Shown here in pieces: positions 31,057-36,591 of a DNA stretch of 64,000 bases. Position 1 is the stretch's first letter. Each line of letters opens with the position of its first letter. The notes below the pieces were generated by a model. It did no database searches and was not told the DNA's origin. It saw nothing but the letters and a program-made list of their open reading frames with translations. Position numbers and translations under genes: made by a program. This stretch comes from Alphaproteobacteria bacterium (GTDB taxonomy: Bacteria > Pseudomonadota > Alphaproteobacteria > Rs-D84): contig JAFTTY010000035.1 of assembly GCA_017466525.1 (NCBI GenBank), forward strand, positions 13,039 to 77,038. The letters run 5' to 3'.

Positions 31057-31617
31057 ATGAGCAATAAAGTCAAATTTGAACAATATGCGTCACTGCTGCG
31101 ATTGTGGTCAACGCGCATGAACTTGGTTGCCCCCAGCACATTGGGGGATATTGAAACACGTCATATTGCCGATTCTGCGCAGCTTGCCGATGTTTTACCA
31201 CGCGATGTCGATGTTGTTGATTTGGGCAGTGGTGCCGGATTTCCTGGGGTTGTTTTGGCGATTTTGGGTTGGCGTGTGACGTGTATCGAATCGATTGGAA
31301 AAAAGGTTGCCTTTCTGAACGCGGTCAAAGAAGAATTAAAATTAGACAACTTGACTATTTATCATGGTCGTGTCGAAGAATATGTCCGGCATTTGCCGGC
31401 AAAAACGGATGATTTTGTATTTACATCACGTGCGTTTGCGTCATTGACCAAGATTATGGACTATGTTGGACGTACAAAACGCCGGCTTTTTCTATTAAAA
31501 GGCCGGGAAATTGAATCTGAAATTGCGTTGGCGAAACAAAAGTATAAATTTGATTATGAATTAATTCCGTCCAAGACCGGTGATGGTTTTATAATTTGTG
31601 TGCGTTTTTGCCGGTAA
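31057..31617 (+). CDS. rsmG: 16S rRNA m7G527 methyltransferase RsmG (GidB)
   Basis: DLGSGAGFPG SAM motif, RVEE and SRAFASL motifs. Confidence 0.9.
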   Translation: MSNKVKFEQYASLLRLWSTRMNLVAPSTLGDIETRHIADSAQLADVLPRDVDVVDLGSGAGFPGVVLAILGWRVTCIESIGKKVAFLNAVKEELKLDNLTIYHGRVEEYVRHLPAKTDDFVFTSRAFASLTKIMDYVGRTKRRLFLLKGREIESEIALAKQKYKFDYELIPSKTGDGFIICVRFCR

Positions 31618-31653
31618 TTTCATGTGAAATGAATTTTAACGTGTTGATTTTAG
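31615..31653. repeat. Left copy of a 39-bp direct repeat flanking the HExxH gene pair
   Basis: TAATTTCATGTGAAATGAATTTTAACGTGTTGATTTTAG matches 33565-33603 at 33/39 positions. It starts at the rsmG stop codon. Confidence 0.85.
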
Positions 31654-32564
31654 CGCGAATTCCAGTTTTTTAAAAAGTGCGTGTTTTTGCCGGCGATTTT
31701 GCTAATTGTAGAGTCCACTGAGTTCAAAATGCGTTGTCTTTGTTTTGTGCTGGCGGCAATCCACAGGTTTACAGGTCCTTTTTTACTTTCAAATTCCCAC
31801 ATTGGTGCCCACATTCCGCTGTTGGGCAAAAATAATGCCTCTTGCAGTTTGGCGCATTGGTTGTTTGGGGTATATTTTTTTGCGCTTCGGTTATTCATTT
31901 CGCGACGAATTGTTCCGATGTATGTTCCGCGTGCAGTTTCGCTTAGAAAGCGTTGTAATGCATTTTCCAAAACGATGTCTGCGATATGTTCTTGATTAAA
32001 GTCCGCGGGCGCATATCTCAGACTGTCGTTTGTTGTGTTTACAATCTGCTTGTCTGCATTTTTGATGATGCTTTTTTGTGTTGGGAATGCCTTATGATTT
32101 TCGTGTCTATAGTCTATCGCTTCGATAATTTCTGCGGCTGGTGCCATAATTTCATTCATGGCTGCGATTCTGCCACGTGTAAAAGAATCAAATTTAGACA
32201 CGTTTTTTGTCAGACTTGCTTTTCGTGCGTGTTCTGTTTCGTGGCGTATGGTTAGTGGTATCAGGTTGTTATTGTTGTTGCAATATCTGTGTATTTTTGG
32301 GTTGTTGCTTTGTGGGTTAAAATAGTATATAACAATGGTGTTATTGTGTGCTTTGAATTCGCCTGCTGCGTATTTGCATTTAAATTTTTCAAACTGTTCA
32401 TCTGTGACGTTTATGGTGTCTATGCGTGTTCTTATGCTTGGGCGTACTTCGGTCTTTTTTTGCGGTTGTTTATTTTGTTTGTCGCGCGTGATAAATGGTG
32501 TTGCTGTGCATGTGATTGCCAGGGCTATCCCAATTGACCAAGATGCGACTTTTTTGAATTTCAT
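31650..32564 (-). CDS. Exported HExxH protein (putative zinc metallopeptidase), paralog A
   Basis: Signal-like N-terminus. LTIRHETEHARKA is followed 25 residues later by AAMNEIMAP, an HExxH...NE arrangement like that of gluzincins. Paralogous to the next gene. Confidence 0.7.
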   Translation of the reverse strand: MKFKKVASWSIGIALAITCTATPFITRDKQNKQPQKKTEVRPSIRTRIDTINVTDEQFEKFKCKYAAGEFKAHNNTIVIYYFNPQSNNPKIHRYCNNNNNLIPLTIRHETEHARKASLTKNVSKFDSFTRGRIAAMNEIMAPAAEIIEAIDYRHENHKAFPTQKSIIKNADKQIVNTTNDSLRYAPADFNQEHIADIVLENALQRFLSETARGTYIGTIRREMNNRSAKKYTPNNQCAKLQEALFLPNSGMWAPMWEFESKKGPVNLWIAASTKQRQRILNSVDSTISKIAGKNTHFLKNWNSR

Positions 32565-32569
32565 ATTTT

Positions 32570-33517
32570 CTATCGTGTTAAATAGTTTTTTATGTTAAAA
32601 GCAATATTGTTTGGCGGCAGTTTGTCTGTGTTTGCTTGTATTATAGAATCGATTGTGTTCAGGGTTTTTTGACGTGTTTTATCGCTTGCGGCCAACCACA
32701 GGTTTGCCTGTCCGCCGGCTGTTTCAAATTGCCACATTGGTGCCCACATATCGAATTCTGGCATGAAAAAGACTTTTTGTATCGGGTCGCATTCCTGATT
32801 TGGTGTGTATGATATTTCTAGTGTGTTATAATATTCGCGTCGTAATGTTGATACGTATTGTCCGGTTTTGATTTCGCCTTTAAAGCGATCCAGTGCGTTT
32901 TTGATGACAATGTCTGCAATTTTTTGGTTGTTAAAATCGATGGGTTGTGCCGGTGTTTGTTGGTTAGTTGTATTTAATATGTTGTCGCATGCTTTTTTCA
33001 CAAATACTTTGCATGTTGGAATTGGTTTTTGGTTTGTGTAGTGGTAATCCATCGCTTCGATAATTTCGCCGGCAGGCGCCATTGTTTCATTGATGGCCGC
33101 GATGCGTGCGCGTGTTTGTGCGCTGTAATGAGGTTTAGTCATTTTTGTCATGTGTGCTTTGCGTGCGTGTTCCATTTCATGGCGCAGTGTTAGTGGCAGC
33201 ATCCCGTTTTGGTGATTACAGGCGTGATTAATGTATTCTGCATTGTCTGTTGGATTATAGTATGTTACCGTAACCTTGTTTTGTAATGGTGTAAAAACGC
33301 CGGCGATTGCCTTTGGGTATTCGATGTTAAAGTTTTGTCTGTTCAGGTTTAGTGTATCTATTTCGACAATTAGTTTTGGACGTGGTTTATAGCTTAGGAT
33401 TCTTGCGCGTTCAATGTCTTTATCGTGAGCGTTTTTTACAAGCAATGCCGGCCCCAGCACGGCTGTGACGGTCATTGCGATTGATAATGATAGTGTACAT
33501 AATTTATCAAACTTCAT
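32570..33517 (-). CDS. Exported HExxH protein (putative zinc metallopeptidase), paralog B
   Basis: Signal-like N-terminus and LTLRHEMEHARKA ... AAINETMAP. Blocks shared with paralog A: IADIV..NAL.RF, MWAPMW.FE and NLW.AAS. Confidence 0.7.
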   Translation of the reverse strand: MKFDKLCTLSLSIAMTVTAVLGPALLVKNAHDKDIERARILSYKPRPKLIVEIDTLNLNRQNFNIEYPKAIAGVFTPLQNKVTVTYYNPTDNAEYINHACNHQNGMLPLTLRHEMEHARKAHMTKMTKPHYSAQTRARIAAINETMAPAGEIIEAMDYHYTNQKPIPTCKVFVKKACDNILNTTNQQTPAQPIDFNNQKIADIVIKNALDRFKGEIKTGQYVSTLRREYYNTLEISYTPNQECDPIQKVFFMPEFDMWAPMWQFETAGGQANLWLAASDKTRQKTLNTIDSIIQANTDKLPPNNIAFNIKNYLTR

Positions 33518-33564
33518 AATATTAAACTATATAGCACAAAAAATATATTTTGTCAATCAATTAA

Positions 33565-33603
33565 TAATTTCATATGAAATGGGGTTTAACGTGTTAATAT
33601 TAG
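33565..33603. repeat. Right copy of the 39-bp direct repeat
   Basis: TAATTTCATATGAAATGGGGTTTAACGTGTTAATATTAG. It contains the perfect 14-bp palindrome ATTTCATATGAAAT. Confidence 0.85.
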
Positions 33604-33689
33604 TCGCTTTTTTTATTTGTATAATATAAACCCTTGACCGAATCGACCGGTTTTTATAAGGTGTACATGAAAAGTATGGAAAGGGAAAA

Positions 33690-34472
33690 ATGACACGAAT
33701 TATTGCATTTGCGAACCAAAAAGGCGGCGTTGGTAAAACGACGACCGCAATTAATATTGGTGCATCATTGGCGGCGATTAAGCGTCGTGTATTGTTAATT
33801 GATTTAGATCCCCAAGGGAACGCTGGGACCGGACTTGGTTTTGTACGTGCGTCGCATCGCCAAAGTGCGTATGGCGTTATCATGGGGACTGCAAATGCTG
33901 CTGATAATATTTTGACGACCGCGGTACCGGGGTTGCATTTGTTGCCGTCGTCCCAGGCGTTGGCAGGCGCAGACATTGATTTGTTAGATATGGAAAATCG
34001 CGAATTTCGTCTGCGCAATGCATTGGCGCCAATTCTGGAACATTATGATTACATTCTGCTGGATTGTCCGCCCGCATTGGGGTATTTAACTATTAATGCA
34101 TTGACCGCATCGGACAGTGTTGTTGTTCCGTTACAGTGTGAATTTTTTGCACTCGAAGGTGTTCAACAACTGACCGATACCATCAGTGTTGTCAAAGAAA
34201 AGTGGAATCCTACATTAGATATACTGGGTGTATTGCTGACAATGTATGATAAACGCTATGGTGTGACGCGCGCAGTCGATGATGATGTTCGCGCAACGTT
34301 TGGTGATTTAGTGTTTAAGACAGTTGTTCCGCGCAATGTTCGCGTGTCAGAGGCACCATCACACGGCAAGCCGGCATTGTTTTATGATTTTAATTCTGCT
34401 GGCGCCCAGGCGTATCTGCGTGTCGCGACAGAGGTGGTAAACAGAACCGAAGGGGGAATCGATGGCGAATAA
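33690..34472 (+). CDS. parA: Chromosome partitioning ATPase ParA (Soj)
   Basis: Deviant Walker A ANQKGGVGKTTT and DLDPQGN; 260 aa. Confidence 0.95.
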   Translation: MTRIIAFANQKGGVGKTTTAINIGASLAAIKRRVLLIDLDPQGNAGTGLGFVRASHRQSAYGVIMGTANAADNILTTAVPGLHLLPSSQALAGADIDLLDMENREFRLRNALAPILEHYDYILLDCPPALGYLTINALTASDSVVVPLQCEFFALEGVQQLTDTISVVKEKWNPTLDILGVLLTMYDKRYGVTRAVDDDVRATFGDLVFKTVVPRNVRVSEAPSHGKPALFYDFNSAGAQAYLRVATEVVNRTEGGIDGE

Positions 34473-35340
34473 ATTTGGATTAGGACGTGGCTTGGCCGAT
34501 TTACAGGCGTCGCGCGGCACAATACCTGATATATCATTACTAACGCCAACAGAACGCGTTGTTGTAAAGCAAATTCCGTTGGCGCAAATTGGCGCAAATC
34601 CTGATCAGCCACGCAAAACATTTACAGAAAACGAATTGGCGGACCTGGCCGCGTCAATAAAAGAAAAAGGCGTTTTACAACCAATTTTATTGCGCGCGGT
34701 AAGTGGGCGTCCATATGCATACGAAATTGTTGCAGGTGAACGTCGTTTTCGTGCGTCCAAGATGGCTGGATTGAATGAGATTCCTGCATTGGTAAAAACG
34801 ATTGATGACACAAATGCGCGCGAAATAGCACTAATTGAAAATGTTCAACGTGAAAATCTGAATCCGATAGAGGAGGCAAACGCCTATAAAAATCTGATGG
34901 AATGTTGCGATTATGAATTGCCGGATGTTGCGCGCCTGATTGGAAAATCCGAAAGTTATATTCGTAATATGCTACGCTTAACATCGTTACCAGATTCTGT
35001 TCAAAATTTGGTCGGTCAGGGCGAATTGTCCGCATCCCACGCCCGCACGATTGCGGTTGCAGAAAATCCCGAAGAATTGGCACATAAAATCATTGCAGAA
35101 AAGTTATCTGTTGCAGATGCGGGTAATTTGGTAAAAAGTGCGCCACGTGCAAAAACGACGCGCGCAATTGTTCAAAAGACAATTGATGCAGATGTCCGCC
35201 GTGATATAGAAAAACGACTGGCAAAATCATTAAATTCGCCGGCAAAAATCGTTGAGCGTCGGGGTGGGGCGGGGCAGATTGTAATATCGTTTGCGACACG
35301 AACGCAACTGCACGAACTGGTTGAAAAATTAACTATATAA
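34462..35340 (+). CDS. parB: Chromosome partitioning protein ParB (Spo0J)
   Basis: GLGRGL start, IVAGERRFRASKMAGL box and an HTH region. The start overlaps the parA stop. Confidence 0.95.
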   Translation: MANKFGLGRGLADLQASRGTIPDISLLTPTERVVVKQIPLAQIGANPDQPRKTFTENELADLAASIKEKGVLQPILLRAVSGRPYAYEIVAGERRFRASKMAGLNEIPALVKTIDDTNAREIALIENVQRENLNPIEEANAYKNLMECCDYELPDVARLIGKSESYIRNMLRLTSLPDSVQNLVGQGELSASHARTIAVAENPEELAHKIIAEKLSVADAGNLVKSAPRAKTTRAIVQKTIDADVRRDIEKRLAKSLNSPAKIVERRGGAGQIVISFATRTQLHELVEKLTI

Positions 35341-35371: not shown

Positions 35372-35422
35372 AATCCCATTCGCTGGCGAAGGGGTGCCGC
35401 GAATGCGGTGGGGTAGTGGTAA
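35372..35422 (+). repeat. GC-rich palindromic (REP-like) element, family 1, copy A
   Basis: AATCCCATTCGCTGGCGAAGGGGTGCCGCGAATGCGGTGGGGTAGTGGTAA. About 45/52 positions match the reverse complement of 41518-41569. Confidence 0.85.
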
Positions 35423-35444
35423 TGATTGTAATTAAAAACAAACA

Positions 35445-35472
35445 AAAAAGCCGGCAAATGCCGGCATTTTTT
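35445..35472. terminator. Bidirectional terminator between the parB side and the convergent radical-SAM gene
   Basis: A-run, hairpin GCCGGCAAATGCCGGC (35450-35465), then T6. Confidence 0.8.
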
Positions 35473-36481
35473 ACTTTGATAATCCGGGTATCAGGTTCCT
35501 GATATACAATCGTAAATCTTCGTATTGTGCAGACCGTACTAAATCACGCCTAATTGCCGGCAAATCCCGGGGATTTTTATTTCTGTCGCGCCATGGGGCA
35601 TGGATTTTTCTGCCGGTGTTTTCGCCCAACATCACGTTCCCAAAACTATCAAACGCCATAATTATTTGTGGTCTTTTATCCCGGGTCAAGAATTTGAACT
35701 GTGGCATTTCGACCGGAACTGCGTCTTCTAAATTATTCGCACGTCCGTGTTTATTTAATTGCGCGCTGCTGCAATAAACCAGAACGCGATCATTAATCGC
35801 ATAAAATATTTGATTTCCACCACCAACCAGTTCCAATTCCGTAATACGATTGCCGTCTTTGTTCAGTTTTTTTATTAATTCGGCAAACATCGGCATGTCT
35901 TTATCAAATGTTGATATGTGTATCATGCATGTGCTGTTGCTTTGTGCACGCGACAAGTCTGATATTAATTGTGCATTTTTATTTATGCAATCTGCATGAT
36001 ATCTGTCCAACGACAGTGAAATTTGTAACGGTGACACGTTTATTTTGCCTGGGCTGTACCGCGTTAAAACATCTGCCAGGTCACAAATAATCTGTTCGCG
36101 ATACTTATTTGTTTTTGTTGCCCAGCCTGCATTGGTTTTTATATCAACGCCACACCCATGGGACAGACCGCAATCCAACAATTCTTTTACATATTTTGTA
36201 TCGTGATTGTAGTACGCACTGAAAATTTCGCCACCCGTAAAGATTAATTCTTTCCCGAATTTAGGGTCTTTTATTGCCTGATTTATATATCCCTTGATGA
36301 CATCTGCCGGGATATATTCTTTGGGCATATTTGGACCACATGATTCCAAACAGTGCGCGCAACTATACCAACACCAATGTGTTGTCTTAAACCCCATGAT
36401 ATAAGGCAGCTTTCGCACATATTCACGCGAAATGCAAATTTTATCCATGGTATCTTCGTAAAAATCTTTAATCATTGACAT
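35471..36481 (-). CDS. Radical SAM domain protein of unknown function
   Basis: CWYSCAHC (CxxxCxxC) cluster near the N-terminus, with a FTGGEIF (GGE) SAM-binding motif 40-50 residues later. The ORF is open to 36577, but the extension crosses the pal terminator. Confidence 0.7.
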   Translation of the reverse strand: MSMIKDFYEDTMDKICISREYVRKLPYIMGFKTTHWCWYSCAHCLESCGPNMPKEYIPADVIKGYINQAIKDPKFGKELIFTGGEIFSAYYNHDTKYVKELLDCGLSHGCGVDIKTNAGWATKTNKYREQIICDLADVLTRYSPGKINVSPLQISLSLDRYHADCINKNAQLISDLSRAQSNSTCMIHISTFDKDMPMFAELIKKLNKDGNRITELELVGGGNQIFYAINDRVLVYCSSAQLNKHGRANNLEDAVPVEMPQFKFLTRDKRPQIIMAFDSFGNVMLGENTGRKIHAPWRDRNKNPRDLPAIRRDLVRSAQYEDLRLYIRNLIPGLSK

Positions 36482-36545
36482 ACTTCTATGTATATCACAA
36501 AATCCGCATTTGTCAATATATTTGTCAAAAAAATAAAATTTATAT

Positions 36546-36573
36546 AAAAACACCGGCATTTGCCGGTGTTTTT
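36546..36573. terminator. Intrinsic terminator after pal
   Basis: AAAAA, hairpin CACCGGCATTTGCCGGTG (36551-36568), then TTTTT. Confidence 0.8.
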
Positions 36574-36591
36574 GCATAATTTTTGCAACAA

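Follow-up and report, generated by a model that had tools for sequence, protein, structure and literature searches.

The 39-bp direct repeats around a pair of putative exported HExxH protein genes are most likely the two parS sites of a gut alphaproteobacterium

Comparative analysis of the region between rsmG and parA suggests that its two 39-bp direct repeats are most likely the two parS sites of this gut bacterium, and that they are older than the protease-like gene between them. Two copies of this gene are present in the window, the whole 64-kb stretch of DNA that was analysed. In the explanation that we favour, with a probability of about 0.7, a pair of composite parS sites came first, an exported HExxH gene was inserted between them later, and the gene was then duplicated. 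From rsmG to parB, the locus has the following features.

31057 to 31617, plus strand: rsmG, 16S rRNA m7G527 methyltransferase (Pfam GidB PF02527, E=1.6e-39)
31616 to 31631 (12-bp core 31618-31629), no strand assigned: left parS-like site AATTTCATGTGAAATG, exact core at this position in 47/48 sequences
31637 to 31649, plus strand: IHF-consensus-like element TAACGTGTTGATT (9/9 match to YAANNNNTTGATW), 7 nt past the left parS core
31650 to 32564, minus strand: ORF of the 304-aa putative exported HExxH…NE protein, the downstream tandem paralog
32570 to 33517, minus strand: ORF of the 315-aa putative exported HExxH…NE protein (H113, E114, H117, E144), the upstream paralog
33528 to 33556, minus strand: predicted sigma-70 promoter of the 315-aa/304-aa pair, from its match to the consensus
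33566 to 33581 (core 33568-33579), no strand assigned: right parS-like site AATTTCATATGAAATG, exact core in 46/48 sequences
33587 to 33614, plus strand: IHF-consensus-like element TAACGTGTTAATA (8/9) with a T-tract at 33608-33614, matched at the fixed offset beside the right parS
33634 to 33660, plus strand: conserved putative promoter region of parA with TTGACC, GAATC (a GANTC site) and TATAAG
33690 to 34472, plus strand: parA, chromosome partitioning ATPase (Pfam AAA_31, E=3e-62; CbiA)
34462 to 35340, plus strand: parB (Pfam ParB_N/HTH_ParB/ParB_C)

The two minus-strand paralogs between rsmG and parA had been described in an earlier note made from the window sequence, and both ORFs were confirmed; the proteins are 43% identical over their full length (E=4e-88). 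The 304-aa gene starts 5 nt past the stop codon of the 315-aa gene, and the pair is therefore probably co-transcribed. The direct repeats at 31615-31653 and 33565-33603 are 33/39 identical, also as described there. The left repeat begins, as had been noted, at the stop codon of rsmG, whose TAA (31615-31617) forms its first three bases, and it also holds the stop codon of the 304-aa gene, so that the entire convergent spacer is filled by the repeat. Neither half of the repeat has a further occurrence within the 64-kb window. The GC-skew over the window showed no clear origin signature.

Each repeat contains the 12-bp palindrome TTTCAYRTGAAA, which is the core of the canonical parS site, and the right site is a perfect 14-bp palindrome. 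The exact core occurs twice in the window, both times in the repeats, and 44 of 47 species-level genomes of Ca. Enterousia and relatives (Rs-D84) likewise have exactly two copies per ~20 kb. Its two positions are fixed across the clade, one at the rsmG stop codon, where the core begins 4 nt past the last rsmG sense codon in most of the 47 related loci, and the other 118-145 bp upstream of the parA start. The sites are thus few, lie near parAB and occupy the same positions in genomes that lack the HExxH gene, a location characteristic of parS. The canonical parS consensus is TGTTTCACGTGAAACA, and an alphaproteobacterium with only two sites has been documented (PMC7022226). The sites of the window match the 16-bp consensus tGTTTCACGTGAAACa at 11 positions and differ at 5; both 5-bp arms, TTTCA/TGAAA, are intact. 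The central CG varies in the clade, where TG, CA or TA also occur. The match rises to 14/16 in the relative L024, one of those in which the canonical GTTTCACGTGAAAC is present at the left site, and to 16/16 in the outgroups. A scan of the window with the canonical consensus, allowing ≤3 mismatches, returned chance-level matches only, and it therefore took a comparison with relatives to recognise the sites.

The repeats have stayed conserved where synonymous divergence is saturated, indicating that they are functional sequences rather than scars. Their similarity to each other was analysed over the 35 nt downstream of the core, where the median identity is 0.57 within genomes vs. 0.54 between genomes. 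The identity within genomes is not clearly above that between genomes, and gene conversion between the two copies was rejected; the similarity is thus explained by shared constraint.

The earlier note had attributed the repeats to the insertion itself. A mobile cassette of two secreted-effector genes would have duplicated the spacer and so generated the flanking direct repeats, in which case relatives should have an empty site with one repeat copy and the homologs might travel as flanked pairs. The distribution of the gene and the repeats makes this origin very improbable. Both copies, 61-180 bp apart, are kept in six gene-less lineages (L055, L056/57, L060, L061, L067 and L069), and a single copy was found only in the earliest-branching one, L072. 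The presence of the repeats in gene-less genomes including the earliest-branching, mostly as both copies, indicates that they are older than the gene and did not arise as duplications on its insertion. Two genes occur only in the window; the other genomes sampled each have a single gene or lack it. All the homologs with an examined context lie between rsmG and parA, no copy was found at any other locus, and no integrase, transposase or other recombinase gene adjoins the pair among the neighbouring ORFs. The gene tree also broadly tracks the species tree. A cassette would account for the accessory nature of the gene, which is missing from the outgroups, the basal lineages and some nested lineages, and for the way in which nucleotide identity to close relatives collapses precisely between the repeats. 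Mosaic blocks suggesting recombination point the same way: in L008, what remains of the 304-aa gene is 94-98% identical, compared with 80-88% for the flanks. The conservation of the repeats despite saturated synonymous divergence and the two copies at the empty sites nevertheless argue against it.

The part of the earlier proposal that holds is that the gene is an addition, since parA follows rsmG with no HExxH gene in between, both in the outgroups and in the lineages that branch earliest in the clade. Ca. Enterousia are uncultured, have genomes of <1 Mb and probably depend on other cells. Synteny of rsmG, gene and parA in 47/47 genome loci is biased by sampling, as these loci were retrieved via the gene itself; a smaller RsmG-based sample is the one unbiased for gene presence or absence. 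A neighbour-joining tree of RsmG, ParA and ParB (no support values) places gene-less lineages at the base and the gene in the crown. In the gene tree, built by the same method and likewise without support values, the 304-aa gene is sister to a group comprising the 315-aa gene and the L008 and L009 genes; the 304-aa gene is absent from L009 and left as an internally deleted remnant in L001/L008. From these sequence comparisons, a single gain of the gene appears to have been followed by losses in some lineages and by a tandem duplication in that of the window, and the pair is read as a lineage-specific tandem duplication rather than as a unit acquired whole. The gene evolves fast. The dN of the 315-aa gene is 0.26 vs. 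0.006-0.035 for the flanking genes, and its dN/dS is 0.26 vs. 0.01-0.06, so that its non-synonymous evolution is 7-40 times faster than that of its neighbours.

The ParB of the window retains an intact GERRFRA CTP-binding box. Alignment to Caulobacter ParB (6t1f) showed L162, E173 and S201 at the positions of Q162, R173 and G201 (Caulobacter numbering). In all the ParBs of the clade that were surveyed, position 173 is occupied by E, D or A and position 201 by S. R173 hydrogen-bonds guanine 1 of parS (PMC7383237), and the position of this guanine is occupied by A in 137 of 172 half-sites of the clade. The change of R173 to E/D/A coincides phylogenetically with the change from G to A at half-site position 1, whereas the outgroups, with an RsmG ~43% identical, keep R173 and G201 together with a perfect TGTTTCACGTGAAACA. 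This covariation suggests that the clade ParB is the cognate protein of these sites, with matching DNA-contact residues.

It is improbable that the palindromes are instead operators of an ordinary, non-ParB transcription factor that co-regulates the gene and parAB, with a coincidental likeness to parS. The right copy does lie in a divergent promoter region, 9-20 bp from the -35 box of the gene and ~55 bp from a -35-like box of parA, as an operator would, but the left copy is located between two convergent stop codons with no promoter there, and both copies persist in the absence of the gene. Their core is that of parS, with a gradation to the canonical site among relatives and outgroups, and the base-contacting residues of ParB have changed in step with the site.

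Beside each parS core, an IHF-consensus-like element is positioned at a fixed offset of +8 to +20, always on the same side. At least 8 of 9 positions match YAANNNNTTGATW in 35/47 left and 31/46 right sites (66/93), vs. 0.09% of background positions. A+9, T+16 and G+17 of the element are invariant or nearly so, and a T5 run at +29 to +33, the counterpart of the flanking T-tract of IHF sites, is 96-100% conserved in the right sites and 64-89% in the left sites. In the window, the right copy has A at the nearly invariant G+17, a feature of this lineage, and the left copy has no T-tract at +29 to +33. The spacing of the T-tract in the clade element presumably equals that in lambda H'. YAANNNNTTGATW is the reverse complement of the IHF core WATCAANNNNTTR, and the conserved CAA and the middle T of TTR are both present. 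For IHF itself, 10.1101/382655 and PMC1874591 describe the consensus, its A-tract and the middle T of TTR, which is critical. No such motif was found beside the parS sites of the outgroups. The consensus sequences of CtrA (TTAA-N7-TTAA) and of the DnaA box were compared with the extended motif; the conserved columns fit neither, and both readings were rejected.

That the element at +8 to +33 is something other than an IHF site is possible, although we consider it the less probable reading. It could be a second ParB contact comparable to box B of P1, belong to a promoter, or be bound by a different nucleoid or cell-cycle protein. No IHF or HU gene was found by tblastn with E. coli IhfA, IhfB and HupA in the window or the related loci, which are a small part of each genome, and these genomes are strongly reduced (PMC12306168). 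Moreover, three DNA-contact positions in the recognition helix of ParB have changed, and compensating contacts could be needed as a result. On the other side, the conserved positions are the IHF-critical CAA triplet, the middle T of TTR and the flanking A/T-tract, and the left copy has no promoter context. An IHF-like bending site thus remains our preferred assignment for the element.

The predicted promoter of the gene pair comprises a -35 box TTGACA (33556-33551), a 17-nt spacer and TGC-TATATA (33533-33528), 10 nt before the ATG. In a direct comparative search, 46/46 loci with the gene had a perfect TTGACA 9-20 nt past the right parS and a -10 box 7-10 nt ahead of the ATG. A consensus promoter/terminator scanner showed no enrichment and missed the promoter of the gene because its -10 box ends in A. 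With the -35 box only 9-20 bp from parS, ParB occupancy could influence the gene. Towards parA, the promoter-like region CTTGACYGAATCG is kept in the window and in L001, L002, L055, L056, L060, L069 and L070.

The HExxH…NE protein is, from its sequence motifs, most likely a zinc metallopeptidase of the gluzincin type that acts outside the cytoplasm. The motifs RHE[TM]EHARKA and AA[MI]NE[IT]MAP pointed out in the earlier note are present in both paralogs, and R112, H113, E114, E116, H117, K120, N143, E144, E151 and E154 (315-aa protein numbering) are invariant in 33 homologs; the HExxH and the acidic pair are retained even in the most distant relatives (P0088, P0091 and P0094). The N-termini, previously called signal-like, are of the MKFKK type followed by a hydrophobic stretch of 15-22 residues, and a few homologs have a lipobox, so that the proteins look exported, with a signal peptide, a signal anchor or a lipoprotein signal. 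The AF2 model of the 315-aa protein (pLDDT 86, pTM 0.80) shows a three-stranded sheet followed by the HExxH on a helix of residues 107-119 and the NE on a helix of residues 133-162, which places the putative third ligand E144, next to N143, 27 residues after H117. The C-terminal domain, roughly half of the protein, is helical and has no fold match. The resemblance to gluzincins suggested earlier is seen in the invariant motifs on consecutive predicted helices after the sheet; a metalloprotease fold is neither supported nor contradicted by the fold matches, whose E-values of 0.4-1.5 are non-significant. With the full-length model, a Foldseek search of the PDB gave nothing below E=0.5 and only spurious helical matches. 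Truncation to the catalytic domain moved zincins to the top of the list, with anthrax lethal factor (E=0.42), proabylysin (1.2) and selecase (1.5) at TM-scores of 0.26-0.31 and the ColH/ColG collagenases lower in the list, all still non-significant. Against BFVD, weak and non-significant IrrE-like, phage 'Peptidase' and SprT-like matches were obtained. Scans of both proteins with Pfam, NCBIfam, PHROGs and PADLOC gave nothing above noise, and neither Pfam nor NCBIfam placed them in a curated peptidase family; among 33 family members, Pfam returned one sub-threshold match to Peptidase_M91 (E=0.07). Sequence searches of the PDB with a single sequence and with a family profile found no match. The family is small, making up 68 clusters out of 1.84 billion representatives, and is restricted to a single bacterial order.

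The proteins might instead carry out another zinc-dependent hydrolysis, for example of cell wall or lipid, or hold a non-catalytic metal site within a binding protein. Such a role is rather doubtful. It would fit the lack of a significant sequence or fold match to any peptidase family and the unmatched C-terminal half, whereas the general-base Glu and both His are invariant, the NE lies on the next helix at a gluzincin-like spacing, and zincin peptidases are the only recognisable fold neighbours. In the peptidase assignment preferred here, zinc would be bound by H113 and H117, with E144 as third ligand, and E114 would act as the general base.

The proposed course of events is as follows. ParB dimers would load at the variant parS palindrome (A/G)TTTCAYRTGAAA(T/C) and then spread as CTP-dependent clamps. 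The IHF-consensus match 7 bp past parS, with its T-tract ~8 bp further on, may serve a bending protein that gives the partition complex its shape, as in parS of plasmid P1. This composite would have arisen along with the ParB changes Q162L, R173E/D/A and G201S at the base of the Rs-D84 / Ca. Enterousia clade, and would then have been tandemly duplicated in the rsmG-parA spacer. In the crown-group ancestor, a single exported HExxH…NE gene was probably inserted between the two composites, its reading frame running through the old spacer and stopping inside the left composite. The consensus sigma-70 promoter beside the parA-proximal parS would drive the gene. Its subsequent inheritance appears vertical, with loss in some lineages that kept both parS sites and tandem duplication in the lineage of the window. 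The fast evolution of the protein would be in line with that often seen in proteins facing a host, a partner cell or a phage.

A more far-reaching proposal, which we put forward tentatively and regard as unlikely to hold in full, is that the whole order, comprising gut Alphaproteobacteria with reduced genomes, has a re-engineered two-site composite centromere enclosing a zinc-hydrolase slot. ParB would have lost R173 and G201, described as 'absolutely conserved', as well as Q162, and the variant parS ATTTCAYRTGAAAT would work only as a composite with the adjacent IHF-type bending site. The duplicated composite would then form a two-site centromere of P1-plasmid-like architecture on a chromosome. 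Its interior would stably house the gene of an exported zinc hydrolase that is highly expressed and evolves fast, and transcription of this gene would be coupled to ParB occupancy.

For annotation, short direct repeats around a gene near parAB should be checked as parS before they are called insertion scars. The clade offers a natural, order-wide example of ParB-parS co-evolution at experimentally defined specificity residues and bases, and points to a possible chromosomal centromere needing a DNA-bending partner. The HExxH protein, judged from its sequence, is among the few clade-specific, rapidly evolving exported proteins of Ca. Enterousia, and, given its consensus promoter, it can reasonably be considered a candidate for interacting with a host or a partner cell.

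In comparison with gluzincins (the thermolysin clan, anthrax lethal factor M34, proabylysin and selecase), the proteins share the HExxH helix, the NE helix 27 residues on and a small preceding β-sheet; they differ in the distinctive RHExEHARK and NE[IT]MAPxxEIIEA motifs, the large helical C-terminal domain and the absence of a significant sequence or structure match. The sites have the same 16-bp palindrome with TTTCA..TGAAA arms as chromosomal parS (TGTTTCACGTGAAACA; Caulobacter crescentus, and Hyphomonas neptunium with two sites), and the systems are alike in parAB proximity, few copies, intact ParB_N/HTH/C domains and the GERR box. However, half-site position 1 is mostly A rather than G in the clade, the central CG is degenerate (YR), and the clade ParB does not have Q162, R173 or G201. 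Each clade site is also coupled at a fixed spacing to a second element, and the two sites bracket a gene slot. In parS of plasmid/prophage P1, ParB boxes are arranged around an IHF site, with box A and box B repeats on both sides, and P1 ParB belongs to a different ParB class. The clade resembles P1 in having a ParB motif beside an IHF-consensus element, suggesting a bent partition complex; unlike P1, each site consists of one palindrome and one putative IHF-like element, on a chromosome. As in Noc-NBS (tATTTCCCGGGAAATa), a ParB paralog with switched specificity (PMC7383237), an adenine occupies half-site position 1 and R173 is lost. Position 6 nonetheless stays A as in parS, residue 173 is E/D/A rather than Q, positions 179/184 lack Lys, and position 201 holds S instead of R. 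In contrast to Noc of Firmicutes, the clade protein is the parA-linked ParB of a proteobacterium.

The interval between rsmG and parA-parB holds a pair of open reading frames (ORFs) on the minus strand, arranged as follows.

31057-31617, plus strand: rsmG, left neighbour of the ORF pair
31650-32564, minus strand: 304-aa ORF, between rsmG and parA-parB
32570-33517, minus strand: 315-aa ORF, between rsmG and parA-parB
33690-35340, plus strand: parA-parB, right neighbours of the ORF pair

The earlier note had described two paralogs flanked here by 39-bp direct repeats, and this was confirmed: the two proteins share 43% identity over their full length, and the repeat copies (31615-31653 and 33565-33603) are identical at 33 of 39 positions. 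Neither half of the repeat was found elsewhere in the 64 kb window. The left copy extends from the rsmG stop codon to just beyond the stop codon of the 304-aa gene and thus makes up the whole convergent spacer. At its other end, rsmG overlaps the start of a divergent 554-aa TPR gene by 27 bp (31057-31083), and gpsA-TPR-rsmG takes the place of the usual mnmG-rsmG arrangement. Throughout the clade, and not in the outgroups, this order is conserved, as is the overlap of the two genes' matches in many of the loci.

Homologs at 73%, 46% and 36% identity are each encoded by a single gene that occupies the rsmG-parA interval in the same orientation, with the palindrome TTTCAYRTGAAA on both sides. A scan of species-representative genomes retrieved 47 loci via the gene itself; the genus-named records are Candidatus Enterousia, and most others are labelled uncultured gut Alphaproteobacteria or Rickettsiales. 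The gene order parB-parA, protease-like gene, rsmG, TPR gene, gpsA is present in all 47, and the palindrome occurs exactly twice per ~20 kb in 44 of them, the left one 4 nt past the final rsmG codon in most loci and the right one 118-145 bp upstream of the parA start. Its arms are identical to those of the canonical chromosomal parS, TGTTTCACGTGAAACA (PMC7022226). Some relatives (L024) carry GTTTCACGTGAAAC at the palindrome position, and more distant ones (RsmG ~43% identical) have a perfect canonical parS. The 39-bp repeats are most likely the centromere (parS). Three outgroups have a perfect canonical parS at or just upstream of the rsmG start (L073 3328, L075 3481, L076 3484) and a second parS, GGTTTCACGTGAAACA, ~1.9 kb further upstream. 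Thus, parS around rsmG/parA predates the clade, and only its position and sequence changed.

Alignment of the window ParB (34462-35340) to Caulobacter ParB (PDB 6t1f) showed an intact GERR box, with Q162, R173 and G201 (Caulobacter numbering) replaced by L162, E173 and S201. These three residues contact parS, and R173 and G201 are reported to be absolutely conserved in ParB orthologs (Jalal et al.). Residue 173 is E, D or A and residue 201 is S in every readable ParB of the clade, including the earliest-branching lineages; R173 and G201 are present in the outgroups with canonical parS. On the DNA side, position 1 of the half-site is A in 137 of 172 clade half-sites, and the central dinucleotide is TA in 37 sites, TG in 29, CA in 20 and CG in 8. 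That ParB and site changed together is the strongest indirect evidence for the palindromes being cognate ParB sites, and from it we infer binding.

The repeat is longer than parS because both copies share further conserved columns. With both site sets aligned on the palindrome core and offsets counted from it, T+8, A+9, T+15 and T+16 are conserved (A+9 at 100% in both sets, T+16 at 100%), as are G+17 (100% of left and 93% of right sites), T+19, TTA at +21 to +23 and a T-tract at +29 to +33. The sequence at +8 to +20, YAANNNNTTGATW, is the IHF consensus WATCAANNNNTTR in reverse complement, and the invariant columns match CAA and the middle T of the consensus TTR. At least 8 of the 9 specified IHF bases are matched in 35 of 47 left and 31 of 46 right sites, compared with 0.09% of all positions in these loci. 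The T-tract is the counterpart of the A-tract that strong IHF sites carry in their other half, with the same 8-bp spacing as in lambda H'. The two elements in the window are the following.

31637-31649: left IHF-like element, TAACGTGTTGATT, a perfect match
33587-33599: right IHF-like element, A for G+17, with the T-tract at 33608-33614 kept

The left element has the parS core on one side and the gene's stop codon on the other, so coding constraint does not explain its conservation. The two copies are no more similar within genomes than between genomes; their likeness thus comes from shared constraint and not from gene conversion. Such a neighbour is absent beside the canonical parS of the outgroups, and no IHF/HU gene was found in the window and the retrieved loci. 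Each repeat is read, from these columns, as a composite of parS and an IHF-type element.

Because the 47 loci had come through the gene, a second sample was drawn via RsmG, and it contained gene-less genomes. Among these, L055, L056/57, L060 and L061 (RsmG 78-86% identical) have a 220-bp spacer from rsmG to parA, in which both composites lie ~107-111 bp apart with a terminator hairpin in between. Two composites are also present in gene-less L067 and L069, at distances of 61 and 180 bp, respectively, and those of L067 form a plain 61-bp tandem repeat; L070/71 have one good and one decayed composite, and the earliest branch, L072, has a single perfect one. The repeats had been proposed to arise by insertion of the gene, which would leave gene-less relatives with an empty site of one copy; six of the seven gene-less lineages with both positions readable do not show this. 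A neighbour-joining tree of RsmG, ParA and ParB places L072, L069-71 and L067, all without the gene, as the first branches and the gene in the crown group, with gene-less L055-57 nested beside the lineage of the window. The gene is an addition at the rsmG-parA junction, as suggested earlier. Of the proposed secreted cassette, the added, predicted exported and zincin-like gene stands, and the repeats as products of its insertion do not.

In the simplest history, one composite would have been duplicated in tandem, as in L067, and the gene gained once between the copies; the gene would then have been inherited vertically, with loss or decay in some lineages (L055-57; frameshifts in L054), and finally duplicated in tandem in the lineage of the window. 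In the gene tree, the 304-aa gene branches as the sister of a group made up of the 315-aa gene, L008 and L009; it is missing in L009 and internally deleted in L001/L008. In L054 (6646-7336), the protease-like gene is a pseudogene split in three frames, with no exact match to the core at the left parS. Over its final ~20 codons, the gene can be aligned with the terminator-hairpin remnant in gene-less spacers; thus, its reading frame exits through former spacer and ends within the left composite. We also observed a third direct repeat, a partial one (31586-31620 and 31665-31699, 77% over 35 nt), in which the rsmG 3' end (…GTGCGTTTTTGCCGGTAATTT) recurs within the 3' end of the 304-aa gene. Its copy at 31665-31699 aligns with one arm and the T-tract of the hairpin, so the C-terminal tail of the gene seems to be encoded by former spacer DNA.

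Comparison of the window with L009 (ParA 99% identical) showed flanking DNA 85-98% identical and the 315-aa gene only 57-83%, the drop starting exactly at the left repeat. The 315-aa gene has a dN of 0.26 and a dN/dS of 0.26, versus 0.006-0.035 and 0.01-0.06, respectively, for gpsA, the TPR gene, rsmG, parA and parB. The gene is fast-evolving, yet under purifying selection overall. The remnant of the 304-aa gene in L001 (6907-7308, equivalent to L008 10946-11353) is 94-98% identical to the window, whereas the rsmG/TPR DNA on its left flank is only 80-88% identical, which indicates recent recombination across lineages at the locus. Downstream of parB, the DNA is variable (35414-36577) and includes a 368-aa ORF whose match to Radical_SAM is only weak (E=1e-3). 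In this region, identity to L009 collapses, identity to L008 is 96-97%, and a comparable gene of 356 aa occurs in L055. Some relatives encode a TraG/VirD4-type type IV secretion coupling protein a few kb from parAB (L002 1-1121; L056 1-976).

The HExxH proteins have no sequence match in Pfam, NCBIfam, PHROG, PADLOC or PDB. A profile search found only 68 members among 1.84 billion representative proteins, so the family is small, and all genome-scan matches come from the same group of gut Alphaproteobacteria. R112, H113, E114, E116, H117, K120, N143, E144, E151 and E154 are invariant, and HExxH and the downstream acidic pair are kept in the three most distant matches. The AlphaFold2 model with the family alignment (pLDDT 86, pTM 0.80) has a low-confidence N-terminal helix corresponding to the hydrophobic leader, strands at 50-58, 73-76 and 81-89, HExxH on helix 107-119, NE on helix 133-162 and a helical C-terminal half. 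E144 would be level with H113/H117 if the two helices are antiparallel. Foldseek searches with the full-length model gave nothing better than E=0.5 against PDB and weak IrrE-like, phage 'Peptidase' and SprT-like matches against BFVD. With a model of residues 45-170 (pLDDT 87), anthrax lethal factor came out on top (E=0.42), proabylysin was third, selecase was fourth, and collagenases and CapP were further down; none of these scores is significant, and the ranking points to zincins. The N termini consist of MKFKK and a 15-22-residue hydrophobic stretch, and a lipobox occurs in 4 of 41 full-length homologs and several database homologs; we conclude that the protein is predicted to be exported or membrane-anchored. 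We lean slightly towards a gluzincin-type zinc hydrolase of an undescribed family, the catalytic assignment being a prediction.

All 46 gene-bearing loci that have a right site show a perfect TTGACA at a distance of 9-20 nt past the right parS. A spacer of 16-18 nt then leads to a -10-like box, whose end is 7-10 nt upstream of the ATG. In the window these boxes are placed as follows.

33556-33551 (-35) and 33536-33528 (TGC-TATATA), minus strand: predicted promoter of the 315-aa gene, a consensus match

This arrangement suggests a strong promoter. No Shine-Dalgarno sequence is visible before the gene in the window (33515-33556) and the 46 related loci, and the mRNA is probably leaderless or nearly leaderless. 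The 304-aa gene begins 5 nt beyond the 315-aa stop codon, so the two genes probably form one operon. Immediately upstream of this promoter is the right parS, which also precedes a conserved TTGACC-GAATC box before parA by ~55 bp; the two promoters might plausibly be influenced by ParB loading. In other bacteria, ParB is known to affect genes near parS (PMC7022226; PMC4488948). The GANTC site directly after the -35-like TTGACC (33634-33644) is conserved among relatives with and without the gene (L001, L002, L055, L056, L060, L069 and L070) and might be a target of CcrM-type methylation within the parA promoter.

Ca. Enterousia, a fermentative member of the uncultured order Rs-D84, has genomes that are mostly <1 Mb and is without standard transporters. 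Its many hypothetical membrane-bound proteins may, as the authors of PMC12306168 suggest, serve transport or interactions with other cells. A clade-specific, rapidly evolving predicted exported hydrolase fits this picture. The main interest of the locus lies in a variant parS that is coupled to an IHF-like element and goes with a ParB without R173 and G201, which would be a new form of a known system; the composite is reminiscent of P1 parS.
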